DNA of 62,381 nt, the filler included, from Dugesia japonica (taxonomy: Eukaryota): NCBI GenBank assembly GCA_001938525.1. It is 5 parts of 5 records of this genome, joined end to end, with 100 filler letters (N's around TTAATTAATTAA, not from the genome) between each part and the next. Parts side by side here need not be neighbours in the genome. Positions count along the whole stretch, not along the records: positions 47,312 to 62,381 come from MQRL01281750.1; 4 more parts are not named here. One strand, 5' to 3'. A model generated the notes under the pieces. The model ran no database searches and was not told where the DNA came from. It worked only from the letters and a program-made list of their open reading frames with translations. This document shows, piece after piece, positions 7,045-62,282 of this stretch. Position numbers and translations under genes: made by a program. Position 1 is the stretch's first letter. Each line of letters begins with the position of its first letter.

Positions 7045-7362
7045 TTACCTGGACCAATTTTCTGGTTTGGATAACCATGCTCTTTGATTGTAAATGGCCT
7101 TTAGTGCGTTTTTTAATACTATTTGTGTTTGTCTGATACATTGCAAGCAATTCTCCTCCAATTGCCGTGCTGACAGCGGACAAGTTAGATGGCAAATGTG
7201 ATTACAACTTTCTTCGGATCTTGGTGTGCGGCTCCCTTGGCATGTGATTGTATAGCATGTAGTGGCATTCATAGCTTCAATTGCCAGTGGTCGACGTATT
7301 TGGTTATCTAAACCAAAAGATACAACTTTATTTGTCTTGTGAAATAGTGACTGATTTATCAT
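7045..7362 (-). CDS. Accessory ORF fragment, second copy of a Cys-rich domain
   Basis: ESCNHICHLTCPLSARQLEENCLQCIRQTQIVLK resembles the domain in ORF 7817-8716. Confidence 0.5.
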   Translation of the reverse strand: MINQSLFHKTNKVVSFGLDNQIRRPLAIEAMNATTCYTITCQGSRTPRSEESCNHICHLTCPLSARQLEENCLQCIRQTQIVLKNALKAIYNQRAWLSKPENWSR

Positions 7363-7810
7363 TAGTCATAAATAATTTTGTCTGGTCTTGAGATAGACGA
7401 TTAATATTAGGTCTCTTAGCTATTTTAGGCATTACTGACGTATCTGAACAATTCAATTCCCTGGCGGCCAGTGCAATATTTCCAGTGTCCATGCTTTCCT
7501 TGCCGATTTTAGTATGAAACTCCTGATGTAAAGACAAGCTATCTTTCATTTTCCTTTCTTTTCTTTGTTTGTCTGCATATTTTAATGCGCCATCTTCCAA
7601 TAACCTCGTTATTTTCTGCAACTCTGTTTCTATCTTTTCATCGTCTTTTGGTTGCATGTCTGTTTTTAGTTCTGAAATTACATCTTTCTCCGTTAGTTCC
7701 CCTTCCCAATCTTCTTCATACTCAGCGTCCTCGCTGAGACTTCTTTTCCTTAATAATGATTCTAAACCACTCCATGGCGGGGGGTCAACTGGTTGAGACC
7801 ATAATATCAA
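7328..7810 (-). CDS. Charged accessory ORF of the Gypsy element, unknown function
   Basis: 160-aa open frame, same strand as pol. Confidence 0.45.
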   Translation of the reverse strand: MILWSQPVDPPPWSGLESLLRKRSLSEDAEYEEDWEGELTEKDVISELKTDMQPKDDEKIETELQKITRLLEDGALKYADKQRKERKMKDSLSLHQEFHTKIGKESMDTGNIALAARELNCSDTSVMPKIAKRPNINRLSQDQTKLFMTNDKSVTISQDK

Positions 7811-7816
7811 CCAGTC

Positions 7817-8716
7817 TCATACTTTTAATATCGTATTGAAATTTTCAATAGCTCGAGTGAGAGTTTCATTATAAATACTGACACAACGTTCGGATAGAGT
7901 GTGTAAGTCATCGGGTGTCAGTGGCGCGTGAATTGTCAACTTATCATGCATTTTCCTACAACGTCTTCTACTGAGTTCGTCTTGTTGTAACAACGCAAGT
8001 CTGCGACTAGCAATGTCCCGCAATGTTGATTTCAAAATTGATTGCAATTTCCGTATGCATGCAAGGCAACTTGCCTCGATTAGAGTTGGCGAGATTGGGC
8101 AGGTTATCCGACCAAAGTGGGCACAACAGTTTTCTGGTACCGGTGTCTGTGCTCCTGGTGGAATTATAGGATATATTGTCGTGGTACCCAATGCTTTACC
8201 TCGACGGCTTAACTGACTTAATACGAATACTGAGATTGCTGGTTTCCCGAGTATCATCATAGCTTGTTGTGATCGTAATGGGTAACTATGCGATATATTT
8301 AATTCCAAGTTTTCCAACTTACGTGGTCTACCGGGCCCTCTATGTTCCGTCGCAGTGCGCGCAGTACTTGTGGTTGGCGCAATTTCTTTCGTCATTGCTG
8401 CCTTTTTGCATAGGTTAGCGTGGTATATTTTTAGTTTCTCTAATAGGTTCCCTCTCCTTCGAACTTTGAGATTGGTTTCAGTTACTTCGATTACTTCATA
8501 TGGTCCTTGCCATGGTCTTTTTAATTTCAATGTAGTGCCAACACAAATATCTGGTAAATTGATCAATACCATGTCGCCTTTCTTAAATGATTGTTGTATT
8601 GCCGTTCTGTCGTGCAAATCCTTATAGCTCTCNTGGTAAAATCCTACATTCTCATCAGCCTGTGCCTGTTTCAGCCCATCGAAATTTCGATCCTCGGCTA
8701 AAATGAAGTATACCAT
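7817..8716 (-). CDS. Gypsy integrase N-terminal edge and C-terminal GPY/F domain fused to a Cys-rich extension
   Basis: FKKGDMVLI..KLKRPWQGPYEVIEV; AT-hook-like RGPGRPRK; integrase core probably hidden at the single N at 8633. Confidence 0.75.
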   Translation of the reverse strand: MVYFILAEDRNFDGLKQAQADENVGFYXESYKDLHDRTAIQQSFKKGDMVLINLPDICVGTTLKLKRPWQGPYEVIEVTETNLKVRRRGNLLEKLKIYHANLCKKAAMTKEIAPTTSTARTATEHRGPGRPRKLENLELNISHSYPLRSQQAMMILGKPAISVFVLSQLSRRGKALGTTTIYPIIPPGAQTPVPENCCAHFGRITCPISPTLIEASCLACIRKLQSILKSTLRDIASRRLALLQQDELSRRRCRKMHDKLTIHAPLTPDDLHTLSERCVSIYNETLTRAIENFNTILKV

Positions 8717-8821
8717 ACCTACTTTTTTCTCTAATAGTTCACGTAATGTGAATATTTCCGTATCTTCCGGGATACTTTCTGTGGCTTTTGATCCACCAAT
8801 TCTCGACAGACAATCGGCATT

Positions 8822-9280
8822 TTAGTTGGCTTTGTCTGTTTTAAATTTTAATAGAGGACAATAATCCTGCATTGCTAATTGCCATTTTGCCATTCTATTC
8901 CATCGTAATGGTTTCTGAGCCATGAAAGTGATTGGTAAGTGATCTGTATAAATTAGTACCTCGTGCCTATGTATCAATGATCGGAAATGTTTAGTGGCTT
9001 TTACTATTGCCATGATTTCTCGTTCGGTTGTGCTGTAATTTAGTTCACCTCCTTGGAATTTCTTGCTGAAATAAGCGATCACTCTCTCTCTTCCCTGTTC
9101 ATCCAATTGGCTTAATACGGCACCCATCGCGTATCCACTAGCGTCAGTGGCTAATATGGATGATTTCTTGAAATCTAGATGCACCAGAATTGGTGCAGTT
9201 AATAATTTGTCCCGTAATGTCTCAAATGATTGTTGTTGTTCCGGTATCTTGTTTGACCAATTCTTGCATCGGTTTTGCAA
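8822..9280 (-). pseudogene. pol: Gypsy RNase H
   Basis: LATDASGYAMGAVLSQ, NYSTTEREIMAIV, YTDHLP; followed by stop then NADCLSR. Confidence 0.92.
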
Positions 9281-9363
9281 TTTTAGCGAAATCCTTAATG
9301 AATTTGCGATAATAGTTTACTAGGCTGAGAAATTCTTGTATTTGAGTACACAATTTGGCGGCG

Positions 9364-10070
9364 CTAGATTTCGAATTTTTTCAGTATTCGTGGATCAGGT
9401 TCTTTTCCTTTGTCCAATATCAAATGTCCGAGATACGTTACCTTATTCTTAGTCCATTCACACTTGGTAGGTTTAACTTTCAAGTTCCATTTTCGTAAAC
9501 GGATAAACACACAACGTAAATCATTGAGGTGTCTTTCAAATGTTGATGAATAAATCAATAGATCGTCAAAATAGGCCATAAATTGAGAGATACCGTGAGT
9601 TACATAATTCATGATTCGTTGAAAAGAGGCTGGTGCATTAGTAAGCCCGAATGGCATACGAANNNNNNNNNNNNNNNNNNNNNNNNTGGAAAAAGCTGTT
9701 TTTTCTCTGTCTTCTGGTTTGATTTGTATCTGCCAATACCCGCTTCGCAAATCCAATGTGGTGAATATTTTGGCGTTACATAGTAATTGCAACAACTTAT
9801 TGATGTATGGTAGTGGATACGTATCTTTTTTGTTTGTGCATTTAACCTTCTGTAATCGATACAGAATAGCTGTATCTTATCGCTTTCTTATCCACTAACA
9901 CCACTGACGATTACCATGGTAAGCAGCTAGGTTCTAAATTTCTGATTTTCACTAATTTAGCTGTTTCTTTGTTGGCAAACTCCTTTTTCTCCCCCTTCAT
10001 GGCATATGGTTTCTGTTTGCTCGGGGTTTCATCCGTTAGTGGAATTGTGTGCATTGTAGCTGTGCACATA
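9364..10070 (-). pseudogene. pol: Gypsy reverse transcriptase (frameshifted)
   Basis: LDLRSGYWQI, MPFGLTNAPASFQR, YFDD, VTYLGH. Confidence 0.95.
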
Positions 10071-10245
10071 CCTAGCTCTTCATCAGTCCATGCAAAAATA
10101 TCTCTAAATTCCNNNNNNNNNNNNNNNNNNNNNNNNTGATCATCCGATAAAGTTTCTGTCTCTAATTTAAATGTTCTATCGATTAGTGGTTCGGCGATTA
10201 TTGCCTCTATCTCGTTGAGTTCTGGTTCGATGATAGTTAGTGTAC

Positions 10246-10830
10246 CTATTCTAGAATTTGTTTGATCGTAATATCTTTTTCAGTGAAGTTAACAAAGCTA
10301 ACTGGTACTTCTCCACTTTTGTTGACTGTGGTTATTCCTCCTGCTGTAGGTAACTCATACTGTTGTGCAAATCCGTCATACGGTTCAAAATAACAATCTC
10401 CTACGTTTGCACTTTTGGTACTGACTACACAATATACTTGGCATCTACTAGGTACCAAAATCTCTTCTGTAGTGAATACTTCATGATCTTTAACGTGGGT
10501 ATACCCCTCCAAGGATTGCAACTGTAATGTGGAGAAGTTTAATATGCCATTCTTCATCAAATTTGGGAGAATGTCCGTACCCAAAATGCACTGTCCAGCC
10601 ATTTCAACTATTATCATTTTGTGTTTGATTTTGTTGTCTTGATATTCTACTTCACAGGCTAATTCCCCAAAAATTTTAAGACTGCTTCCGTTTGCCACAT
10701 CCGCCGTAGTGTTAGTGGGTATTATGTTTTATATTCTGTTATTGCGATTTCCTCTATTGATAACAACGAGATCGTTGCTCCTGTGTCTAGCAATGCTGTT
10801 GTAGGTCTCCCATTGATTTTAACTATAATT
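10246..10830 (-). pseudogene. pol: Gypsy aspartic protease plus downstream spacer domain
   Basis: ALLDTGATISL near 10770-10800; ANGSSLKIFG and CILGTDIL. Confidence 0.85.
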
Positions 10831-18029: not shown

Positions 18030-18129
18030 NNNNNNNNNNNNNNNNNNNNNNNNNNNNNNNNNNNNNNNNNNNNTTAATTAATTAANNNNNNNNNNNNNNN
18101 NNNNNNNNNNNNNNNNNNNNNNNNNNNNN
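18030..18129. other. Artificial scaffold linker N44-TTAATTAATTAA-N44
   Basis: Identical 100-nt six-frame-stop spacer occurs four times. Confidence 0.95.
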
Positions 18130-26714: not shown

Positions 26715-26716
26715 AA

Positions 26717-26872
26717 ATAATCGAAAGACCATCTGTAACAATTTATTCTAAAATTAATACAAAGTACATTGATAGTTTAAAATTTAACATTGTATTTGAA
26801 AATTTTAACACAATAGATTTTAACCAAGAAATGATTTCTATTTTAGTTCATTTAAGAAAGTATCGTTTGTGA
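26717..26872 (+). CDS. Minor capsid (penton) 3' end, element C
   Basis: IIERPSVTIYSKINT...FENFNTIDFNQEMISILVHLRK aligns with the C-terminus of 51656-52381. Confidence 0.8.
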   Translation: MIERPSVTIYSKINTKYIDSLKFNIVFENFNTIDFNQEMISILVHLRKYRL

Positions 26873-26955
26873 TATTTTACATTTTACACAAAACATTTTA
26901 CATTTTACACAAAACATTTTACATTTTACATTTTACACAAAACATTTTACATTTA
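26873..26955. repeat. Intergenic tandem repeat of TTTTACA/CAAAACA units
   Basis: Direct reading. Confidence 0.8.
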
Positions 26956-26959
26956 AGAA

Positions 26960-47311: not shown

Positions 47312-49191
47312 AAAGGAATTAAATTACTTATTTTATTGGGACATTTCTTACACAATTCGGTAAAAACAAAATGATTATCAAATTTTGAAGCATTGTGAGC
47401 ATAAACTGGAACAAAATACTTTTTAGGTCTTTCATATTTCTTGTTGCATTCTTGATGACAATATCCTTGAAAATCTCCAATCCAAGGATTAATTGATTTG
47501 TATCCAGTGAACTGGATATCATCATCTAAATTTAAATTACAATAATAACATTTTTCTTCAGCTAGTTGATCAAATACATTTTCATCTAGTTGAATCTTTT
47601 CAGATTTAAATCTATTTTCAATCAAGTTTTCAAAAATATTATTAAATTTAAATAACCAATCAATAAATTTAGAAATACAATCTATTCCTTTAAAACATTG
47701 ATAGATATTTTTCACTTTTGGATGTCTACTTACTAGATATAATCCTAAACAAAATGGAATCAATTCACAAGTCTCTGAATGTTTAAAAGTTTCAATATCA
47801 AAGTAAATAGCAAAAGGATTCCAGTTTTTCATGTAAAATTTATTAAACTTGTATGTTTTGTCATTGGTAAATTTTATATCTGAAGATTTTTGTTTTAAAC
47901 ACAACTTTTGATGATTAATTAATGATTCTTTATTTCTTTTCCAAGTCATACAATTGATGTATAATTCTTGAGTGTGATTTGCTTTTAATTTTATCTTGTT
48001 TAGATTTTGAATTAAAATGTAGTGCTCTCCTTGGGAGTGTTTATTCAAAAAGAGCAAATTACATTTATTATGTAAATGAGAAGGATTAGTATCAAAGTGA
48101 GAACTATAAAGTTTTTGAATTCTAGGTTCCCAATTCTTTGACTTGAGAACTTGAAAAACATTAACTTTAAAGTTGTTTAATTTCTCAAACTTGGGTAAAT
48201 CTTTAATATTCATTGGCATTGTAATACCTTCCCAATTTAGAAAGTTGTCATTAATATTATTATATGAAAAAACTGAATCTCCTAGTTTAATATCAAGATG
48301 AGCCATTATACAATATTTAAAACAATTAAAATCATTCTTTGGATTTTTAATGTTTAAAATTCCTGGAATATTATTCCATTCACTAGGTAAAGGAGAATAA
48401 CCTTGACCAGCTAATGACTCATAATCTGAAAGTTCAATAGTAAAAGAATTAAACTTTTCAAAAGACCATCCTGATCCTTGAGTTTCAGTTGTAAAAATAT
48501 CTTCTGATAATTGATCCAACATGTTGTTGATTACTAGATTAATTTGACTAGGCATTGTTATTTTTTCAGAATGAACATCATAATCTTATATCCAATTTTG
48601 AGCATTACAACTATTATCACCAGAAAAGTCTTTTGTATAAGTAGTTGAACATGTTATTGAAACTGCAACCTTTTGAAATTTATTTAAAAACAAATTAACC
48701 ATTTCCTTTATTTCAAAAGAATAATCTTTTAATAGATTAAAATTAATTCTATAATTAAATTGATAAATATTTTCAATAGCAGGTTATGGCTCATTTTTGT
48801 AAATGTTAAAGTTTCTCTTTAATTTAATCATTGTTTCTTGGCAAGTTTCAATTTCATAATCTGGATAATCTTTGAATAATTTTCTTAGAGATGAATCTGA
48901 ATCTGAATCCTCTGACTCTGACTCTGAATTATTCCAACTAGTTGGTTCCAAATCAGCTACTTTCATGACATGATTACGACCTTGTAAATGTCTATTATAA
49001 TTAACCAAATTATTAAAATTAATATTACAAATATGACATCTTCGCCAAACATTTCCTAACCTACTTTGTTCAACTTTTCTTAAAAGAGGTTTTCCTCTAA
49101 GATGAGTTTCTAGATGAGTAAAACTTTTAAAATATTGATTACACAATTCACAAAATTTTTCAGTTAACTGAAAAATATTAGCTTGTGTCAT
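47312..49191 (-). pseudogene. polB: Protein-primed DNA polymerase B, 5' half (two zinc fingers, TP/OTU-like region, exonuclease); two in-frame TAA
   Basis: ORFs 48784-49191 and 47312-48555 are in one frame; QGSGW, NIKN..D..CFKYCI, YFDIET, VYAHNASKFDNHF. Confidence 0.88.
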
Positions 49192-49361
49192 TTTATATAG
49201 AAGTAATTTGGTCTTGTTTTGGTTTTATATTTTTATATTTTTATATTTCCAACTCGAGTTAACTGGAACTGATTCAACAATTTGGGAAAAGTTTGAGCCA
49301 ACTCTTGAAGTTGAATTTGAATATCATTTTGAAGATTGTTAGCAACATTCTTATCTTGTTC

Positions 49362-49910
49362 TTAAACAAGAAGTTGAAGTTGATTTTTTAGACTATTAAT
49401 TATATCTTTTGAAGTTTTAATTTCTTCATTACTCAATTCATTATCTTCCAAAGCTTTTACATGAAAGATGAATAATTTATTTTTAGTTTCTTCCAATAGT
49501 TTAATTTTTGCTGTATATTTAATTATTCTATTTTTAATTAAACCAACACGTAATGAGCCATGAGCTATTGAATAAATTATTGGAATTCCAGTTATTATTC
49601 CTGTTGCTAATATTGAAATAGTAAAAGATAGAGTAGTCATTAAAATTATACTACCAGAAGCAATTCCTACTATTGTAGATATTCCAACATCAGTAAATCT
49701 TATTCCATTATCAAATCTAGACCATCTTTTTAATAAATTATTGTAATGTTTTAATTTTTCATTAACCCATTCCAAATCACTTGTAAAATCTCTAATTCTT
49801 GTTCTATTTAATTTATTTTTCCAATCTTGTATAGTTTCACCAGTTGTCTGAGTTTCCCAACCATTGGACAAATCAGGATAAAGTTTTTCAGCTTGCTGAT
49901 CAACACTCAT
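49362..49910 (-). CDS. Conserved Polinton protein with two hydrophobic helices
   Basis: Homolog of 29188-29763. Confidence 0.8.
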   Translation of the reverse strand: MSVDQQAEKLYPDLSNGWETQTTGETIQDWKNKLNRTRIRDFTSDLEWVNEKLKHYNNLLKRWSRFDNGIRFTDVGISTIVGIASGSIILMTTLSFTISILATGIITGIPIIYSIAHGSLRVGLIKNRIIKYTAKIKLLEETKNKLFIFHVKALEDNELSNEEIKTSKDIINSLKNQLQLLV

Positions 49911-50172
49911 TTTTAAATAATTTATTTTGGATCAAGTTTTATTTTTTAAAATCAAGTTTTATTTTTTAAAATCAAGTTTTAATTATATAATTGATTATCG
50001 AGTTTAATTTCCAGACTAGTTAAATAAACACCCTTGGAAATGTATATTGAAAAAGAAGATCACTTGAAATTAGTTTGAACTACTTCTTTTGATTTTATAC
50101 CAAAAAAAGCTATAGTTGAATCTATTTTTAAATTAAAGGTTTTAAAAATCACTGGAACTGAATGGGCTTTTA

Positions 50173-51201
50173 TTAAAATTTCAATATTAGTTTCTTTTCC
50201 ATTATTTGGGTTATGACAAAAACAAAAAAAATTATTAAATTTTCTTTTTCTTCTAATAATTCAAAATTTAATTTTAATCTATCCAAGAGATGATAATAAT
50301 TATTTCCAAACAATTGTTCAATTTTTCCCTTTCTTACAATTTCCAATTTTTTTATTCTATCTACCCCAATACATGGTAAATCATTTACAATTAATGATGA
50401 AGATAACATAAAAATTATATTTTTATATTTTTTTAGAGGTGGTCCAAACTCTTTAACTTGTTCATTAAAAAATGGAATATATGGAAAATAATTATTTAGA
50501 AATTTCTTCAAGTGATTTAATTTATCTTGTGAATAAAGTTTCTTTTCATCTCTTTGTTTAGTCAAATCATCTAAATATATTTTAATTTCATCTAGTTTTT
50601 CAGATGTTAATACTAGATATATTTTTGTTAAATCTTCTTTTAATTTGGGTAAAGGATCATTTTGAGATTGCAAGTAAAAATCAAATTCATATTTTAATTT
50701 ATCAACTTGTTGTTTCAACTTGTTACATTTTTCTTTACCACAATTACTTGTTAATTTTTCAACTTGTTTCTTTAAATTTTCAACTTGTTTCTTTAAATTT
50801 TCAACTTGATTCTTTAAATCATTTACTTGATTCTCAATATGACTCTTGTTTTGTTTTAAGTCATTAAGTATAATTAACATTTCACTTTTTATTTTTATAA
50901 ATTCTTTTTTACTTTCACTCAAGTTTAATTTATTACTTTCCATCAAAGTTTCAATTGTTACTTGTTGTCTTGTAATTTTATTTTCCAACTTGTTGGCCAA
51001 GTTAGTTATTTCAGTTTGAATAAATTTCTTGTCATCATATTTACTATTTTTAATTTCTTCTTCATGTTCATGTATTTTTAATTTGATATTAATTTTACTT
51101 TCTACTTTTCCATCAAATGCTTCAAGTATTTGAGAAGTATTTTTATTTTCAAGAGTTTCACCAAATCTATTCATTATTACATTTGAAAAGCTATGAGTCA
51201 T
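50173..51201 (-). CDS. Putative fibre/spike-like coiled-coil protein
   Basis: MNRFGETL; heptads QVNDLKN-QVENLKK-QVENLKK-QVEKL; NY.PY and IVRKG shared with 27406-29127. Confidence 0.55.
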   Translation of the reverse strand: MTHSFSNVIMNRFGETLENKNTSQILEAFDGKVESKINIKLKIHEHEEEIKNSKYDDKKFIQTEITNLANKLENKITRQQVTIETLMESNKLNLSESKKEFIKIKSEMLIILNDLKQNKSHIENQVNDLKNQVENLKKQVENLKKQVEKLTSNCGKEKCNKLKQQVDKLKYEFDFYLQSQNDPLPKLKEDLTKIYLVLTSEKLDEIKIYLDDLTKQRDEKKLYSQDKLNHLKKFLNNYFPYIPFFNEQVKEFGPPLKKYKNIIFMLSSSLIVNDLPCIGVDRIKKLEIVRKGKIEQLFGNNYYHLLDRLKLNFELLEEKENLIIFFVFVITQIMEKKLILKF

Positions 51202-51646
51202 ATTTAATCATTTCTTTTTTTAACAGGTGTTTAAATGTTTTTTTTAATTCTTTTATTACATCATTAAATGGAACATTGTTGACTATTGAATAAATAAAAT
51301 AAATACACAAGATTCCACATATTCTTGTTCCCCAAGGTTGAACTTGAACTTGATTCCATTTAATAACATTTTCTTTACCAGTTGACTGGACACAATCTAT
51401 TGGAGGTAAACCATAAGAATCAAAATAATATCCAGGAATATATGCAACCCAATGAGAACCTTTTTGTTTTGTATTTTGATAATTAATAATCCAATTTCCT
51501 TTTTCCAAGTTGGAAAACTCATTACTCATTACAACATTAACATCTAGTTGTAAAAATTTAGCAATTTTCATTAAATCAAAATTAGTCATTGTTGATATTC
51601 CAAATGTTTTTAAAAAGTCTAATACTGTCCACATTTTCTTAACCAA
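51191..51646 (-). CDS. Adenain-like (C5) maturation cysteine protease
   Basis: GSHWVAY, YFDSYGLPP, QVQ.....CGILCIYF (His-Asp-Gln-Cys intact). Confidence 0.93.
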   Translation of the reverse strand: MVKKMWTVLDFLKTFGISTMTNFDLMKIAKFLQLDVNVVMSNEFSNLEKGNWIINYQNTKQKGSHWVAYIPGYYFDSYGLPPIDCVQSTGKENVIKWNQVQVQPWGTRICGILCIYFIYSIVNNVPFNDVIKELKKTFKHLLKKEMIKYDS

Positions 51647-53231: not shown

Positions 53232-53783
53232 TTATTTTCCTTGATAGGGCTGGAAATATAATCCTTCACCAGATGGAATAATTTCTATTCCTTGTTTAAA
53301 TTTCTTGTGTCCAAGTAGTTGAGGCTTTCCTATAACAGATTTTACATATTTATGAATAGCTGTTCCTTGATAGGGATTTAAATATATTCCTTGTCCATCT
53401 ACTACTGGTTGTTTTGCTTTATTTAATTGAATATCTAATAATTCATTTCTTTTACCCACATTAACTGCTTCTCGAGAATTACTAACCACCTTTGCAATTC
53501 CCGCGGCTGTTCCAGCCGCTGTTCCAACTGCACCTAATCCTGCTAAAATTCCTGGTATTAAAGCTAATAATGGAAATATTCCACCTTCTGTCGTCTTCAC
53601 TCCAGAGAAATGTTTCTCTTTTAATATTTCTTTAGTCTTTTTACCTATCCAATAATTTTTACCATTTATTTTTATTGATTTACACTTGTTACTATTTATC
53701 AATTCTAGTAATTCCTTTTCTGTTGTGTTTGTTAATATGTTAGTAGTCATTTTATTAACTAAATTATTTTGCTTTCCTATCAC
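53232..53783 (-). CDS. Adenovirus pX-like core/membrane-active protein
   Basis: EGGIFPLLALIPGILAGLGA resembles pX GG-hydrophobic motif; repeated GxG-hydrophobic-Y..PYQG. Confidence 0.65.
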   Translation of the reverse strand: MIGKQNNLVNKMTTNILTNTTEKELLELINSNKCKSIKINGKNYWIGKKTKEILKEKHFSGVKTTEGGIFPLLALIPGILAGLGAVGTAAGTAAGIAKVVSNSREAVNVGKRNELLDIQLNKAKQPVVDGQGIYLNPYQGTAIHKYVKSVIGKPQLLGHKKFKQGIEIIPSGEGLYFQPYQGK

Positions 53784-53794
53784 TATGCTCTAGA

Positions 53795-54589
53795 TTAAAA
53801 TAAATTATCCATCAACATTTCCTTTTCCTTGTCTAGATAAAAATAATTGTATTTTGTTTTCCAATGATGATTAGTTTCAAAATCATATTCTTCTTTATTA
53901 TTAAAAATATTACTAAAAAGATCATGATAAACATTATCCTTTTCTCTTTTACCTAATTTGAAAAATACAAAACAATTACTATTATTTCTTATGGAATTTT
54001 TATCCAAGTCATAATAAGTTTGAGATATATAAATTACATTACAATTATTATGTCTCCCTCTAGTGAAATAACTTTTTTGAACTTGTTGATTCTTTTCATT
54101 TACAACATCATCAAATATAATTAAATTTTTCTTATTGTTTGGTAACTTATCACATGGTACAATTTCTGATGCTTTACTAGAAATTGTAATATTTATTCCA
54201 GCTTCCACTTCTTGGATATTAGGTTGATTAAGAAGTTGACAATACCAATAAATAATTTCTTGTGGAGTTAAATCTTTGCCAACTAGTTGGGATATTCTAT
54301 CTTGCATCTCATCTGAAAAAATATTCATTAAATCTTGTTTAGAAAGTCCTTGACTAAATCCATGGTTTAATAATTGAATTTCAAATTGTGATATTGTTGT
54401 TGAAAATAAAATTAAATTATTATAATCTATAAAACCTGGAGTTAGTAACATTTTTAGTAATAATACATTTTTTCCACAACCAGAAGAACCAATAATTAAA
54501 CATCTAAATTGTGGTGGAAATATTTCATGTTTAAACTTGCTAGAATTATTTTTCCATATTGGTAAGATTCCAGTCAACTGCCCAGTCAT
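53795..54589 (-). CDS. A32/FtsK-like genome packaging ATPase
   Basis: GSSGCGKN, LIIFDD, FTRGRHNN, ISQTY, IRNN. Confidence 0.93.
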   Translation of the reverse strand: MTGQLTGILPIWKNNSSKFKHEIFPPQFRCLIIGSSGCGKNVLLLKMLLTPGFIDYNNLILFSTTISQFEIQLLNHGFSQGLSKQDLMNIFSDEMQDRISQLVGKDLTPQEIIYWYCQLLNQPNIQEVEAGINITISSKASEIVPCDKLPNNKKNLIIFDDVVNEKNQQVQKSYFTRGRHNNCNVIYISQTYYDLDKNSIRNNSNCFVFFKLGKREKDNVYHDLFSNIFNNKEEYDFETNHHWKTKYNYFYLDKEKEMLMDNLF

Positions 54590-55969
54590 TTTTTACCCAA
54601 ATTAGTTAACTGGAGTTCATTAGCATAAAATCTACCAAGTACTTTATTTCCTTCTTCATTTTGTATTCCAAAAGTTAATACTCCATCCCATGGTTGAGAT
54701 GTATTATTTTCTCTATAAATTTTGTATATTATATAAATCTTTTCAGTCCAATTTGTTGTATATCCCTTTTCAAATTTATTTTTAAATCTAAAAATTCTAA
54801 CTCTATCTCCTATTTTCAATTTCTTTTGTTTGTTAACAAAGTCTTTTCCAACTAGTTGATTAGTGTTATTCCTTTTAATAGTTTTATTATATAAGAGGTT
54901 AGGAGAATCACTAGCTTCTTTTGGAGTAATATTAATTGAACTATGAATTGTATTATTATAATCTTCAACTATAGATGTTAACAATTCTTTATTCCATTTT
55001 TGATTTCCTTGTCTTGTAAATTTTGTATAATTTTCTTTTAAATGTTCTAATTACTCGTTCAACAAAAACAGCTTTACCTTGAACTTCAGTCTCTAAAGAT
55101 GTAGAATATAAATTTATATTATTCTCTATACAAAATTCCTTAAAAACTTTATTATAAAATTCTTTACCATGGTCAACCCATAAATTATTAGGAATACGAT
55201 TACTTGTTTCTATTATATTTTCAAATCCATCTTTTACTTCTTTTCCAGTTTTATTATCAAGTATTTCTAAAAATAAAAATCTAGTATACAAATCTACTAC
55301 CATTAAAACACTAGTTAACTGTTTTTGATTTGGTTTCCAACCACTTAACTGGAAACCTTTAGGATTCCCTAAAAACATTAAATCTGCTGACCATGTTTCA
55401 TATTTAAAGAATATTTTTACTTTGAGAAATTTTTTATTTTTATTAAAAGGTTTATGTAATTCATCCTCTATTCCAGAACCAAGTATTATTTTTCCCTTCA
55501 TAGCCAACTTTACTATTCCTCTTTGAATTATTTCACTAGTAGTTGGATTTTCAATATTATTTAAATCATGTATTAAATTAACATCTGCTAAATGTCTATC
55601 TCTTAAATCTTCTGAAGTGTAAGCAATATCATGTTTTAGAGCACAAGCATCAACTTGATTAATTGGTTCTTCACCAGGTAAAGGAACAAGAATTCCTTCG
55701 TCATTGTTTTCTAATCTTAAATCTAATCTTGTTCCTGGCCCAGTATAATTATGTCCAAACAAGTGTCTTTCTCCTGGATACTTTTCAGTTGTAAATGGTT
55801 TTAAAATTGTACTTGTTAATTTAGAAGATTGAAGGTCTCCTCCCTTTTCAAGATCTCCTCTGGTTTGAGCTTCATGATACTTTTTTGAACATATTCCAAA
55901 ATGTCTTTTTCTATTTGACTTGGTTAAATATCTATTACATATAGTACACAATTCTTTTTCTAGAGGCAT
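54586..55969 (-). CDS. Zinc finger-PLA2-rve integrase fusion, one frameshift near 55020
   Basis: CTIC..H...C; NYTGPGT..DACALKHDIAY; WSADL, WVDHGKEFYN, VERVIRT; C-terminus YNNTIHS..IGDRVRI..FEKGY..NWT in 54586-54984. Confidence 0.92.
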
Positions 55970-55993: not shown

Positions 55994-57295
55994 TTAACTG
56001 GGAATTCCTCTTGTATTAAAATTTTTAACATCTTGTCCTTTAATATTTTCTACAAACATTACTTTTCCATTTGATATTTTTAATTCTACATGTTTCTCTT
56101 GAAGTATTAACCAATATAAATTACCAGTCATTTCACTATCTTTTGTTACATGACAAGTTAAATCTACATTATTTATAGTTAATTTTTCATCTTGAGCAGA
56201 ACAATCAAAACAAAATATTGGATAGAAACTTGACCAATCTTTAATACTTAACTGTGGTTTGATTAAGAATGCATTACACATGTCAATATACATTTGATAT
56301 GGAAACATTACATTATTATTTTTTAAATCAAACTCTTCTCGAGTATTTGGATAATAAACATTATTTAATTGTAATTGAATAGTTTTTAAATAATAATTAA
56401 ATGTTTGATCTACTTCTACTGGAGGATTTGCATTATTTCTTACTTTTTTAGTTATAGTTTGTTTTATTGTAAATAAATTATTATTATTTTTATATGAATT
56501 GGTATTATATTTAAATCCAATAATTACAAATCTAGGTCTATATAGTAAGTTACCCATTTTAATTGAAAAACTAGTTCTAGTTGTTAATGAACAATTACCC
56601 ATTTCCCTTTCCAAAAATGAAGATTGAATACTTTTACCTGATGATAATCTATCCAAATAACTCAATTCACTTTTTGGTGATAAAGTCCATTCTGGAATGT
56701 GTAATTCTAGTGTATCAATTTGAATTTCAACTTTATCTTCTGTAGTTCCAAAGAATATTTTTTCATTCATTATTTCTCTATTGCAATCCAATTGAATAAA
56801 TGTATTGAATAATAATCTATTATAATTTTGTAAAAACCCAAACAGATTTCTTAGAGGATAATAACCTTCATATTTTGTTGAATGTAATTCTTGTCTTTTA
56901 ACAAAACTTTCTTTTATCGAATTTGGAATCCATCCATATGCTGAACAAGATTTTTCATTTGCTTTGTCTATTAAAATTAAATTAATCATTGTAGAAGCTA
57001 CATCTGGAAATGTAATTGATTCAATATAAGTTGATCCTATTTTTAATCTCATTTGTGAAAATAAAGCTGGAAAGAAATCATTTTCTAGTGTTGTTGTTGC
57101 TATAGGATTCTTAAAAGAAATTTTAAAATACATTTTTCCATTACCAATATCTAATGGATTAGTATTTTGTAAAGATTGAAATGAAATGTCTCCATTTTTA
57201 TTTAAATTTACTATCGATCCAGCCGTTGGTGAAATTTTCAACAAATCGTTTTTAGTTTGTAAATGTGTAAAGTTTATATTAAAATCTAGATCCAT
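55994..57295 (-). CDS. Major capsid protein (double jelly-roll, hexon-like)
   Basis: 433-aa intact ORF; LFSQMRLKIG..IE, PLRNLFGF, PRFVIIGF, LNNVYYP, PIFCFDCS. Confidence 0.88.
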   Translation of the reverse strand: MDLDFNINFTHLQTKNDLLKISPTAGSIVNLNKNGDISFQSLQNTNPLDIGNGKMYFKISFKNPIATTTLENDFFPALFSQMRLKIGSTYIESITFPDVASTMINLILIDKANEKSCSAYGWIPNSIKESFVKRQELHSTKYEGYYPLRNLFGFLQNYNRLLFNTFIQLDCNREIMNEKIFFGTTEDKVEIQIDTLELHIPEWTLSPKSELSYLDRLSSGKSIQSSFLEREMGNCSLTTRTSFSIKMGNLLYRPRFVIIGFKYNTNSYKNNNNLFTIKQTITKKVRNNANPPVEVDQTFNYYLKTIQLQLNNVYYPNTREEFDLKNNNVMFPYQMYIDMCNAFLIKPQLSIKDWSSFYPIFCFDCSAQDEKLTINNVDLTCHVTKDSEMTGNLYWLILQEKHVELKISNGKVMFVENIKGQDVKNFNTRGIPS

Positions 57296-58639: not shown

Positions 58640-58883
58640 TCATCTTTTACTATCACTTTTACTATCACTTTTACTTTTACTATCACTTTTACTATCACTT
58701 TTACTATCACTTTTACTATCACTTTTACTCATTTAACTGGTTTTTTATCTATTTAACTAAAAATCTAAATTTACTATTTTTCCCTTTACCTAGGAAGTTT
58801 TTTTTTTCCTTTATCTAGGAAGTTTTTTTTTTAAATTTTGGGGTGGGGGGTGGGTGTGTCTATCGCGCCATTATACATCTACT
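58640..58883. repeat. Putative right terminal inverted repeat with 12-bp subterminal array (TTTTACTATCAC)n
   Basis: Tandem array, G-tract, terminal CTACT; partner TIR not in the window. Confidence 0.7.
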
Positions 58884-61800
58884 TACGTAAAATAAAATTA
58901 AAAAGTAATCATGTTCAAGAGTTGTGCATAAACTGTATGACTTGGAAAAGAAATAAACAATCATTAATTAATCATCAAAATTTGTGCTTCAAATATAAAT
59001 CAGCTGAAATAAAATTTAGTAATACCGACACATACAAGTTTTCCAAATTTTTCACCAAAAACATGAATCCTTTTGTAATTTACTTTGACATTGAAAATTT
59101 TCGTTCTATAACCAATGAATTAATTCCCTTTTGTTTAGGGTTTTATTTAGTAAGCAATCATCCAAAAGTAAATAACATTTACCAATGTTTCAAAGGATTA
59201 AATTGTATTTCTAAATTTATTGATTGGTTATTAAAGTTTAATGACATTTTTGAATCTATAATTCTAGATAGATTTATTTCAGATGACTACTCTGAGGACT
59301 CTGAGTTGGAAACCTCTAAAAAATGTTATTATTGTTCTAATAATCTTGAGGACTCTGAAGAAAAAGTTTCACAGAGTATTAATCCTTGGACTGGTGAATT
59401 CCGCGGTTATTGTCACAAAGAATGTAAAAAGAAACATGAAAACCCTAAAAAGTATTTTATTCCAGTTTACGCACACAACGCTTCCAAATTTGATAATCAT
59501 TTTGTTTTTACCGAATTGTGTAAGAAATGTCCCAATAAAATAAGTAATTTAATTCCTTTAAATACTGACGTCTACATTTCATTTTCAGTTGATAGATTAA
59601 GGTTTCTTGATTCATTAAGAATGCGTAGTGGACATACAGTAGAATTAATGGGTCAAGATTTAGCCAAAAGTAAAATTCATCCTCATTTAAGTAGTTTTTC
59701 ATTAGTTCCTTGTAAAGGCTTCTATCCATATGATTTTGTAAGTGGAAAAGATTATCAAGAAGTAGAAACTAAACTATTAAATTATACACCAAACATTAAT
59801 CATTTTTTCAATTCATTAAAACAAACACAAATGACTGAAACTGATTACAATAAATTTTTAACCGACTACTCACAATTTCCCAATCTAATGAAATACACAA
59901 TGCACTATTTAAAACTTGACGTATTAATTCTAGCCGACTTTTTCGAGAATTTCCGACAAGTATCCATGACAAAAAATGAAATTGATCCAACCTATTGTTA
60001 AAGCGCACCAGGTCTTACATGGGAAATTGGAATGAAAAAGACACAAGTTGAATTAATTCTTCCAAATCCTAGTAATTACGACATGTATCTAACTATTGAG
60101 CAAGGTATTCGAGGAGGATATTCTGGTTTGTGTGGAAATCATCATGTAATAGCTGACAAGGAACACACAATCAAATGCCTTGATCAAAATAGTTTGTATT
60201 CAGCTTGTATGACTGAACGATTGCCTTGGGTTAAAATGTGGTGGTCAGATAATAAAACTTATAAACCTACAACTGATGAATTTAAAATCATTGATGGTGA
60301 AAAAGTTTATGTTGATTACATTTATACAGTGGATTTAATTTATCCTGAAAGTATAAAAGAAAAAACCAAATATTATCCCTTGGCAGTTGACAAACAACCA
60401 GTTGAATATAATGAATTGAGTAATTACCAAAAAGATTTACTAAACAAGACAGAAAAAAGGCAAAGTAAATATTCTAAACTAATAATGAATCAGAAAAATA
60501 AATACAAGTACGTTGTAATGGGTAAAGTTCTAGACTTTTATCTAGAACAAGGAATGATACTCAAAACTATTGTTGAGTTTATAACATGCAAAACACACAT
60601 GCAAAACATAACATAACACACAGAAAATATCAAAGCAGATCCTCAAATTCAAATCCCAAAGAAAGTAATCGAGCTCAGTATTATGGTACAAATTCAATTC
60701 AAATGCAAACCCCAAGCATATCAATTTATTATTTGACATTATTAATTGAATCAAACATTTATCTTGTTTAACTGAATCATTAAATCAAACATTTATCTTG
60801 TTTAACTGAATCATTAATAATTCATGAATTAAACAGTGTAGTTGATTTTATTTTAATTCATTGAATTTATTTTATTTTGTAGTTTGAATTTATTTTTATT
60901 TTTATTTTTATTTTTATTTTGTATTTTGAATTTATATTTTTATAGTAAAATATTTGGACATTTTGAATTATTTTTATTTTATTGTAAAAAATTTTTGAAA
61001 AGAACAATTAAATTTGGAAAGAAATAATAAAAAATTTTATAAATGTAAAAAATTATTTTGAGAATTTTATTGCAGGTGTATTAAGCCTACCTGTGTGAGA
61101 TTAGTATAAATACTAATCAGTTTTAGTGTAAGAGCAGACATTTAAATTACAGAAGGCTCCGAACTCTAAGTGNNNNNNNNNNNNNNNNNNNNNNNNNNNN
61201 NNNNNNNNNNTATAAGGATACGCTGTATATTTATATTCCAAAAATAATAAAAGTATTTTAAAAGGTGTGTTATATTATTCATTTATATAAGGAACTACAC
61301 ATATTACCATATCTATAATTTTCTGTAAAATATTGCAATTATATATTATTGTATCAACATACACATAGAGAATTTAACACCCGTAAAATCTTTATATATA
61401 TTTTTTTCGAACCATAAAATCTTTTTGTTGAGTAGTAATACCCAACACTATACACAGTAAAATAATTGTTCCTACAAAATATTGGCTCAAGGATTACATT
61501 GAAACTAATATTAATAGTAGAAATGAAGCAAAAGCTAATAATGATACATTTGGTGATGCTTTCTTTAAACTATTAAATAATGGTTTTTACGGAAAGACAT
61601 TGGAAAATGTTAGGAATCGAGAGAATTTATTCTTGGCAAAAAGTAAAAAGGAAATTAAAAATCAAGTTTCCAAACCAGGATATAAATCTTCAACCATTAT
61701 TAATGAAGAAGTTGCTTTGATGTAAAGTTTCAAATCTTCAATAATGTATAACAAGTCTCCTTATATTGTTTTCTTTGTATTGGAATACGCAAAACTAATC

Positions 61801-62282
61801 ATGTATAAATTTGTTTATCATGATATTGAAAGACTAATCCCCCAACAATACAAAATCCATTACAGTGATACTGATTCATTAATGATGGAATTTATTCATC
61901 CAGGACAATCATGGGATGAATTCACTGAAAAAAGTAAAATTAAATATTTATTTGGAAAGAATCTCTTTCAAATGAAGGATGAGTTTCCCAATGAAGTAAT
62001 TACTGAAGGTTTTTTCATTAAAGCTAAATCATATTGCCTTTTAAAAGAAAAACTCCACACCAAGCACAAGGGTTTAAGTAAAACTAATAAATTAACTAGT
62101 GAACAATATCGTAGTGTTTGTACAATAATGAAACAATAACTGGCATTAATTATTCTATTAATTCAAAAATTCATGTTGTTAAGCAAACAGAACAAGTTAA
62201 AAAAGCATTGACTCCCTTTGATGATAAACGATTTATTTTAAGAGATGGAATAACTGCACTTCCATATGGATATTTTTCATAA
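58884..62282 (+). pseudogene. polB: polB of a second Polinton (B): 5'-truncated by element A, interrupted by a solo LTR, two stops and a frameshift
   Basis: YFDIE, HNASKFD, KGFYPY, YLKLDVLILADFFENFR, IRGG, DQNSLY, KLLNNGFYGKT, YSDTDS, DDKR..LPYGY. Confidence 0.92.
60571..61447 (+). mobile_element. Solo LTR inserted in polB B
   Basis: TGTTG...CAACA ends, 4-bp TSD CTAT, TATAAATA plus TCAGTT and AATAAA; removal restores the frame (LKTI-HSKI). Confidence 0.88.

Follow-up and report, generated by a model that had tools for sequence, protein, structure and literature searches.

Parvovirus-type PLA2 and integrase in one reading frame in two Dugesia japonica Polintons, with candidate processing sites on both sides of the PLA2 domain

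Why should a parvovirus-type PLA2 and an rve integrase share a reading frame in a Polinton? The question is raised by two elements, copies A and C, in 62,381 nucleotides of Dugesia japonica DNA (assembly GCA_001938525.1; this whole stretch is the window, and all coordinates refer to it). The window consists of separate scaffolds joined by N44-TTAATTAATTAA-N44 spacers at 18030, 26615, 37028 and 47212, and since these joins are artificial, distances across them are meaningless. Copy C occupies the scaffold at 26715–37027, and copy A a different one that runs from 47312 to the end of the window.

In each copy Pfam places PF08398 (PLA2) and PF00665 (rve) in one frame, with all four domain scores above the curated cut-offs and no other Pfam domain in either fused ORF. 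The ORF of copy A runs from 55969 to 54992 on the minus strand (326 aa; PF08398 at residues 69–143, PF00665 at residues 191–287) and that of copy C from 34016 to 32876, also on the minus strand (380 aa). The parts of the two fusions are as follows.

55874–55948, minus strand: copy A, zinc-finger-like N-terminal segment, residues 8–32, absent from copy C
55838–55843, minus strand: copy A, GG ahead of DLQ, candidate N-side processing site (motif comparison)
55478–55837, minus strand: copy A, parvovirus VP1u-type PLA2 domain (PF08398, E=1.1e-8)
55733–55747 and 55619–55633, minus strand: copy A, PLA2 Ca loop and HDxxY
55472–55489, minus strand: copy A, candidate protease site at the junction (IILGSG), 2 residues ahead of the integrase start
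54992–55465, minus strand: copy A, first part of the rve integrase with the D-D-E motifs, frame lost near the end (PF00665, E=6e-9)
54586–55050, minus strand: copy A, C-terminal half of the integrase in another frame, without a PF00385 match
33972–33977, minus strand: copy C, GG ahead of DLQ
33624–33971, minus strand: copy C, PLA2 domain (PF08398, E=3e-7), a high-confidence domain in the structure model
33555–33635, minus strand: copy C, junction IMIGQG with a charged 21-residue linker
32876–33554, minus strand: copy C, rve integrase, open to an N gap (PF00665, E=1.4e-10)

The PLA2 motifs, the upstream GGDL and the linker glycines described in the sequence-only reading are present in both copies: YTGPG, HDIAY, HLAD, GGDL and ILGSG begin at residues 75, 113, 126, 43 and 162 (to 166) of copy A, and YTGSG, HDISY, HIAD, GGDL and MIGQG at residues 46, 80, 93, 14 and 129 (to 133) of copy C. 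That reading also placed PLA2 and rve in one frame, which Pfam bears out for both copies, but the frame of copy A breaks late in the integrase. Its span of 54586–55969 is consequently not one reading frame but two ORFs, with a shift between about 55050 and 54992, downstream of the three catalytic residues (WSAD 193, WVD 264, VER 303). A single intact ORF in copy A is excluded, as the end of the integrase sits in the other frame; full-length relatives read straight through the same point, which makes a programmed frameshift unlikely. Copy C has a single N at 33649 and remains open into an N gap at 32873, which hides its C-terminus. With further lesions in the copy C protease and the copy A polymerase, both elements appear from their sequence to be decayed or imperfectly assembled copies.

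The PLA2 domains of A and C are 74% identical over 119 codons (dN 0.21, dS 0.77, dN/dS about 0.27) and the integrase cores 53% identical over 121 codons (dN/dS about 0.6), PLA2 being the better conserved; dS is likely too low in this AT-rich DNA, and the mis-framed integrase C-half and capsid rows are disregarded. Such codon conservation, together with an architecture that recurs in dozens of database proteins, argues that the fusion is beyond chance.

The segment ahead of the GG is more variable. It reads as the claimed C2HC finger in copy A, but relatives have C-x2-C-x11-H-x5-H, and a C2H2-like finger is found in only 13/86 PLA2–integrase fusions. A DUF5679 zinc ribbon is an alternative leader before GG-PLA2 (P0087, P0145, P0169, P0233 and many stand-alone PLA2s) and in one case directly precedes an integrase. 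Two matrin-type C2H2 fingers, which resemble in kind the finger that some fusions carry, are found in a small protein encoded on copy A's scaffold (PF12874, E=2e-12; 48784–49224, minus strand).

Structure models are consistent with two folded enzymes in one chain. The copy C model has a mean pLDDT of 86.6, with disorder confined to residues 1–15 and to residues 134–141 (pLDDT under 50), directly after the junction, and its integrase best matches the foamy virus, STLV and MELD virus integrases. The copy A PLA2 model (pLDDT 80.7) matches entomopoxvirus, densovirus and parvovirus PLA2 domains. Against solved structures its top match is a middling one to rice PLA2 (Z 7.7, rmsd 3.7, 90 aligned), with no parvoviral chain among the matches listed, and a sequence search of solved structures with the PLA2 gave nothing significant (best E 0.097). 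The downstream [ACS]D is present in 82/86 fusions. Taken together, YxGxG, HDxxY, the downstream Asp and the modelled fold identify a parvovirus-type PLA2, a predicted phospholipase.

Is the fusion peculiar to these two copies? The sequence-only reading called for a search for PLA2+rve architectures elsewhere, and they prove recurrent. With the integrase half as query, both domains occur in 57 of the best 120 of 716 relatives, the other 63 having no annotated PLA2; with the PLA2 half, both occur in 10/36 matches. At 50% identity, 33 of the best 150 representatives score on both profiles, one of them in reversed order. The ESM Atlas offers, as leads only, three two-domain clusters of 184, 111 and 72 members (scores 0.82–0.85), one auto-named for both domains. 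At the DNA level, 65 loci were fetched, of which five contained both PLA2 and integrase; the fusion is seen in one of these (L032), and in the other four (L011, L014, L033, L038) PLA2 is a separate gene about 4–8 kb from the integrase. Host range rests on a few named records: four Lottia gigantea gene models, the nearest named relatives, continue past PLA2 and include the opening residues of the integrase, and one model from Oculina patagonica carries the fusion but may be a gene-calling join. Several Polinton-like contigs (L003, L011, L014, L022, L026, L031, L032, L033, L038) are binned in bacterial MAGs and are probably eukaryotic contamination. On these database sequences, the PLA2–integrase fusion is real and widespread in Polintons.

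It is also apparently undescribed. Full-text literature searches gave no description of a PLA2–integrase or protease–integrase fusion, though Repbase, supplements and subscription papers could mention one. Neither type is described in the available portions of PMC3671162, PMC4061559, 10.64898/2026.06.19.733378, PMC11161782, PMC11296320, PMC12220804, 10.1101/2023.08.22.554363, PMC11071296, PMC11131425, PMC8097293 and 10.1101/341131. Below, 'in part' marks a source that was available in portions, to which the statement is limited.

Copies A and C fall inside a clade of 70 integrases, 67 of which have PLA2 or a PLA2 tail (support 98 in a 58-row subset). None of the 70 has a chromodomain, compared with 72/101 unfused integrases; this absence counts as one clade trait and not as independent events. 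PF00385 (chromodomain) is absent from the C-terminal integrase piece of copy A, and the end of copy C is inside the gap. Other PLA2–integrase fusions fall outside this clade, and a single clade of all fusions is rejected (AU test, p=0.00012, 25 versus 33 rows; the 58 rows were hand-picked from 235, and the test is blind to repeated gain versus loss), so there were either several gains or several losses. In a PLA2 tree, midpoint-rooted and with biased sampling, stand-alone clades are interleaved with fused ones.

What might such a chain do? In mavirus, the virion includes an rve integrase together with a predicted hydrolase of the alpha/beta type, which has a candidate GK↓G site (the arrow marking the cut); capsid protein is cleaved by the viral protease at GG↓X and GY↓G (PMC6048507, in part). 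Packaging of Polinton PLA2 has already been proposed (PMC4642659, in part). This precedent for a packaged integrase and for cleavage at glycines supports our preferred reading, held with modest confidence, that the fusion is a virion precursor that enters the particle by way of its PLA2 part and is cleaved by the protease of the element itself, which would free a PLA2 for endosome escape and an integrase for insertion. Starting from the architecture, the intact catalytic motifs, the two folds and the conserved glycine motifs seen here, we infer the timing, packaging, cleavage and activity of the precursor. Its layout would be an optional basic or zinc-finger leader, GG, PLA2, G-x-G or GG, and integrase. 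It would be made late, together with the flanking capsid and ATPase genes, and packaged via PLA2; at maturation the cysteine protease would cut ahead of PLA2 and behind it, at GG↓X or Gx↓G sites of the mavirus type; on entry the free PLA2 would breach the endosome, and the free integrase would accompany the genome and insert it with no need for new gene expression. With both enzymes in one chain, their ratio would be set at 1:1 and loading of the integrase assured.

Two other readings, both unlikely in our estimate, have to be weighed: (i) the protein stays uncleaved, so that PLA2 is tethered to the genome through the integrase and acts on the endosomal or nuclear membrane beside the incoming DNA, the glycine motif being simply the inherited end of the PLA2 domain; and (ii) cleavage takes place, but the fusion exists for the sake of genome economy and co-expression, and the integrase, freed in the producer cell, acts there or stays out of the particle, so that none reaches the next cell. 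At the junction, GG or G-x-G is present in 79/86 fusions, compared with 345/17,200 (2%) length-matched integrase windows and 5,451/17,200 (32%) shuffled junctions. This enrichment over both controls supports the precursor reading, and the seven fusions without the motif weaken it. A mavirus-type GG↓X or GX↓G pattern (after PMC6048507, in part) fits the same 79/86. The strict adenain motif, (MIL)xGxG or (MIL)xGG (after 10.1101/341131, in part), fits only 9/85, A and C included, and is rejected as a family-wide rule, a result that weakens the precursor reading and favors an uncleaved protein. Lysine occupies P4 in 44/85 junctions; a count of lysine at P6 is circular because the search pattern required it.

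Local structure points both ways. The disorder directly after the motif in copy C would suit cleavage there. In both models, however, a helix ends at the junction glycine, and many linkers have just 2 residues; this may limit protease access and is more easily reconciled with an uncleaved chain, as is the absence of a chromodomain from all 70 members of the A/C clade, whose integrases may have gained another localization device.

Unfused relatives are informative about both ends of PLA2. The stand-alone set comprises 79 proteins (89 new ones minus the Lottia models and those without HDxxY), 39 of which keep the glycine and have no integrase start. In 16 of these 39 the C-terminus lies 1–3 residues past the conserved glycine, five ending exactly at G-x-stop. 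On the N side, GG lies 0–3 residues before the D-hydrophobic start of the domain in 93/154 PLA2 proteins, and a start Met falls within 3 residues of that D in 11/154. Both glycine motifs therefore coincide with natural ends of unfused relatives, and at the C side G-x-stop is the end that a cut would leave, in support of the precursor reading. As the junction motif is the usual end of an unfused PLA2, it also predates the fusion, which weakens that reading, lends weight to an uncleaved protein, and leaves room for the motif to be a docking or structural element. The stand-alone proteins come without DNA context, and the argument is further weakened in that some may be truncated or interrupted fusions. 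Against the motif as a mere domain end stand the second GG on the N side and the PLA2 ORFs of L011 and L033, which stop before the glycine, so the fold does not need it. By these comparisons the glycine motifs flanking PLA2 behave like processing sites and are candidate cut sites.

The strongest argument comes from other partners. Among 238 classed proteins, ten carry an adenain-like protease N-terminal to the integrase (P0058, P0091, P0101, P0111, P0121, P0127, P0140, P0162, P0187, P0231), and all ten have a GG/G-x-G junction; 7/8 junctions of the first type fit the strict (M/I/L)xGxG / (M/I/L)xGG form. Peptidase_C5 support is weak (E 0.0004–0.02 in 4/6 scanned proteins), with the catalytic motifs visible. 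In the integrase tree these fusions fall into two distinct parts, both supported; an ESM Atlas cluster of 60 belongs to one type. In P0232 the order is reversed (integrase, chromodomain, G-x-G, PLA2), and the protein ends one residue past the conserved glycine. That unrelated partners share a junction motif leads us to read it as a probable processing site and to suggest that the integrase is attached to virion proteins. An uncleaved protein, with the motif inherited from PLA2, would not be expected to have counterparts with the same junction on a protease or in reverse order.

The second reading is harder to separate from the precursor reading, since every sequence feature that speaks for cleavage fits it equally. 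Fusion and fission also look frequent, given the interleaved PLA2 clades and the rejected single fusion clade, and 63 of the best 120 close integrase relatives have no annotated PLA2. What tells against mere co-expression is that both partners are inferred virion proteins, and that the unfused PLA2 lies about 4–8 kb from the integrase in 4/5 loci, so that the fusion is not a simple read-through of neighbors. In addition, proteases of the same class work inside particles, and mavirus packages an integrase that is not fused (PMC6048507, in part).

In both elements the order is capsid, fusion, ATPase; beyond the ATPase, copy A has genes for a core-type protein (185 aa), a 276-aa protein, what is probably a penton (so labeled from position) and a protease. 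The mapped neighbors are listed below.

55994–57295, minus strand: copy A, PF21738-matching protein (E=2.6e-20)
53795–54592, minus strand: copy A, A32-like packaging ATPase, immediately following the fusion (PF04665, E=1.9e-8)
53232–53789, minus strand: copy A, core-type protein encoded separately (185 aa; GG, three G-x-G motifs)
51191–51634, minus strand: copy A, cysteine protease, candidate processing enzyme, catalytic columns kept
26957–27383, plus strand: copy C, cysteine protease, broken over two reading frames

Pieces of copy C match the PF21738 protein of copy A, and PF04665 is found in both. The 185-aa protein resembles the tail joined to PLA2 in other elements and has matches in L033 and L038; its similarity to the PLA2 tail of L014 is a short, weak G-x-G-(I/L)-Y-x-x-P-Y match (E=0.006). 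Motifs of the GG/G-x-G type occur in the 276-aa protein as well as in the 185-aa one, and in the protease alignment columns H, D, Q and C are invariant in 9/9 rows, copy A included, which together support the precursor reading; Peptidase_C5 (PF00770) matches 8/9 rows, copy A's own protease being the one without a match. The same reading is weakened by the broken copy C protease and copy A integrase, and by coral polintoviruses, in which integrase expression clusters apart from the capsid genes (PMC11131425, in part).

Other features of the two scaffolds help to place the elements. Four copy A ORFs at 58835–62139 carry KxxxNxxYG and DTDS, candidate motifs of a protein-primed PolB; two of these pieces were scanned without a Pfam match, and the copy C scaffold has no PolB. 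An inverted repeat of polymerase-region coding DNA (47312–47997 and 58889–59559, 81–90% alike) flanks the copy A gene block as two polymerase 5′ halves facing outwards, and may represent a second element or an inverted duplication. Terminal inverted repeats with a 6-bp target duplication were not found in the 25 longest of 150 inverted pairs; the scaffolds end inside the elements. Copies A (49362–49931, minus strand) and C (29179–29763, plus strand) share a protein of 189/194 aa that contains a long hydrophobic stretch and has no significant Pfam match. In copy C, internal duplications around N gaps, in a 573-aa ORF and the capsid gene (27406–29127, 34787–35977), are probably assembly artefacts. 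Elsewhere in the window, 7045–10728 (minus strand) holds decayed LTR-retrotransposon pol pieces, with ORFs that are presumably protease-, RT- and RNase H-like.

Separate translation of the integrase from an internal start or spliced transcript, or an assembly or gene-calling artefact, is very improbable: a Met lies between glycine and integrase start in 26/85 fusions, gene callers set starts inside the PLA2 tail in several proteins and the window is a gapped draft with frame breaks, but 59/85 fusions lack one, the spacing between the first junction glycine and the integrase start takes 33 different values (3 to 75 residues) with no stop and no loss of frame, and the architecture appears in 57 of the best 120 matches, from several sources, in the L032 DNA and in the Atlas clusters of 184, 111 and 72.

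Polinton particles were unobserved as of PMC8097293 (in part). Attachment of the integrase to inferred virion proteins through a predicted cut site bears on how Polintons integrate in a new cell, and the sites would define the specificity of the Polinton protease. In practical terms, many 'integrase' annotations conceal a second enzyme. A more tentative extension, which we hold to be somewhat short of probable, is that Polintons repeatedly evolved Gag-Pol-like polyproteins in which virion proteins serve as integrase-loading tags released by protease at a glycine motif; several integrase lineages would use PLA2 as the tag, two the maturation protease, and one a PLA2 placed behind the integrase. 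On that extension, pre-packaged integrase would be a general and selected trait of Polinton particles, and the fusions would provide a sequence-level argument for the existence of such particles.

Retroviral integrase is made in the Gag-Pol precursor and released by the viral protease. The integrase fold is shared with the Polinton fusions, and the further resemblance is functional only: Gag, aspartic protease, RT and the HHCC domain are absent here, the protease is a cysteine protease, and the carrier would be an entry enzyme or a protease. Parvovirus VP1u has the same Ca loop, His-Asp dyad and fold, with PLA2 likewise carried on a larger virion protein, but there it is joined to a capsid protein and in A and C to an integrase.

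Mavirus is likewise a DJR virus with a packaged integrase (MV02), a hydrolase found in two fragments (MV13) and a protease (MVP), but these are separate products and the hydrolase has an alpha/beta fold, whereas PLA2 and integrase form one chain here (PMC6048507, in part). Since mavirus packages its integrase, pre-made integrase in a DNA virus particle is already established. This limits the surprise: the retrovirus-like delivery of integrase by a DNA virus put forward in the sequence-only reading is plausible and gains from the convergent fusions, but loses its claim to novelty. In adintoviruses, virion-protein fusions have likewise been suggested (Hexon-Adenain), but as hypothetical frameshift products without integrase, and the adintovirus integrase has a C-terminal chromodomain, unlike the A/C clade (0/70 rows) (PMC11071296, in part).

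PLA2 itself is already known among the accessory genes of group 2 (Alpha) Polintons (PMC8502044, in part) and as a separate ORF in Sf Mavericks (PMC5803895, in part). The PLA2X of Alpha adintoviruses and group 2 Polintons has the same parvovirus-type PLA2, belongs to the virion module and has a proposed entry role, but it bears a pX-like C-terminal domain and stands apart from the integrase (PMC8502044, in part). Copies A and C have the integrase in the place of that domain, and in copy A the pX-like protein is a separate ORF.
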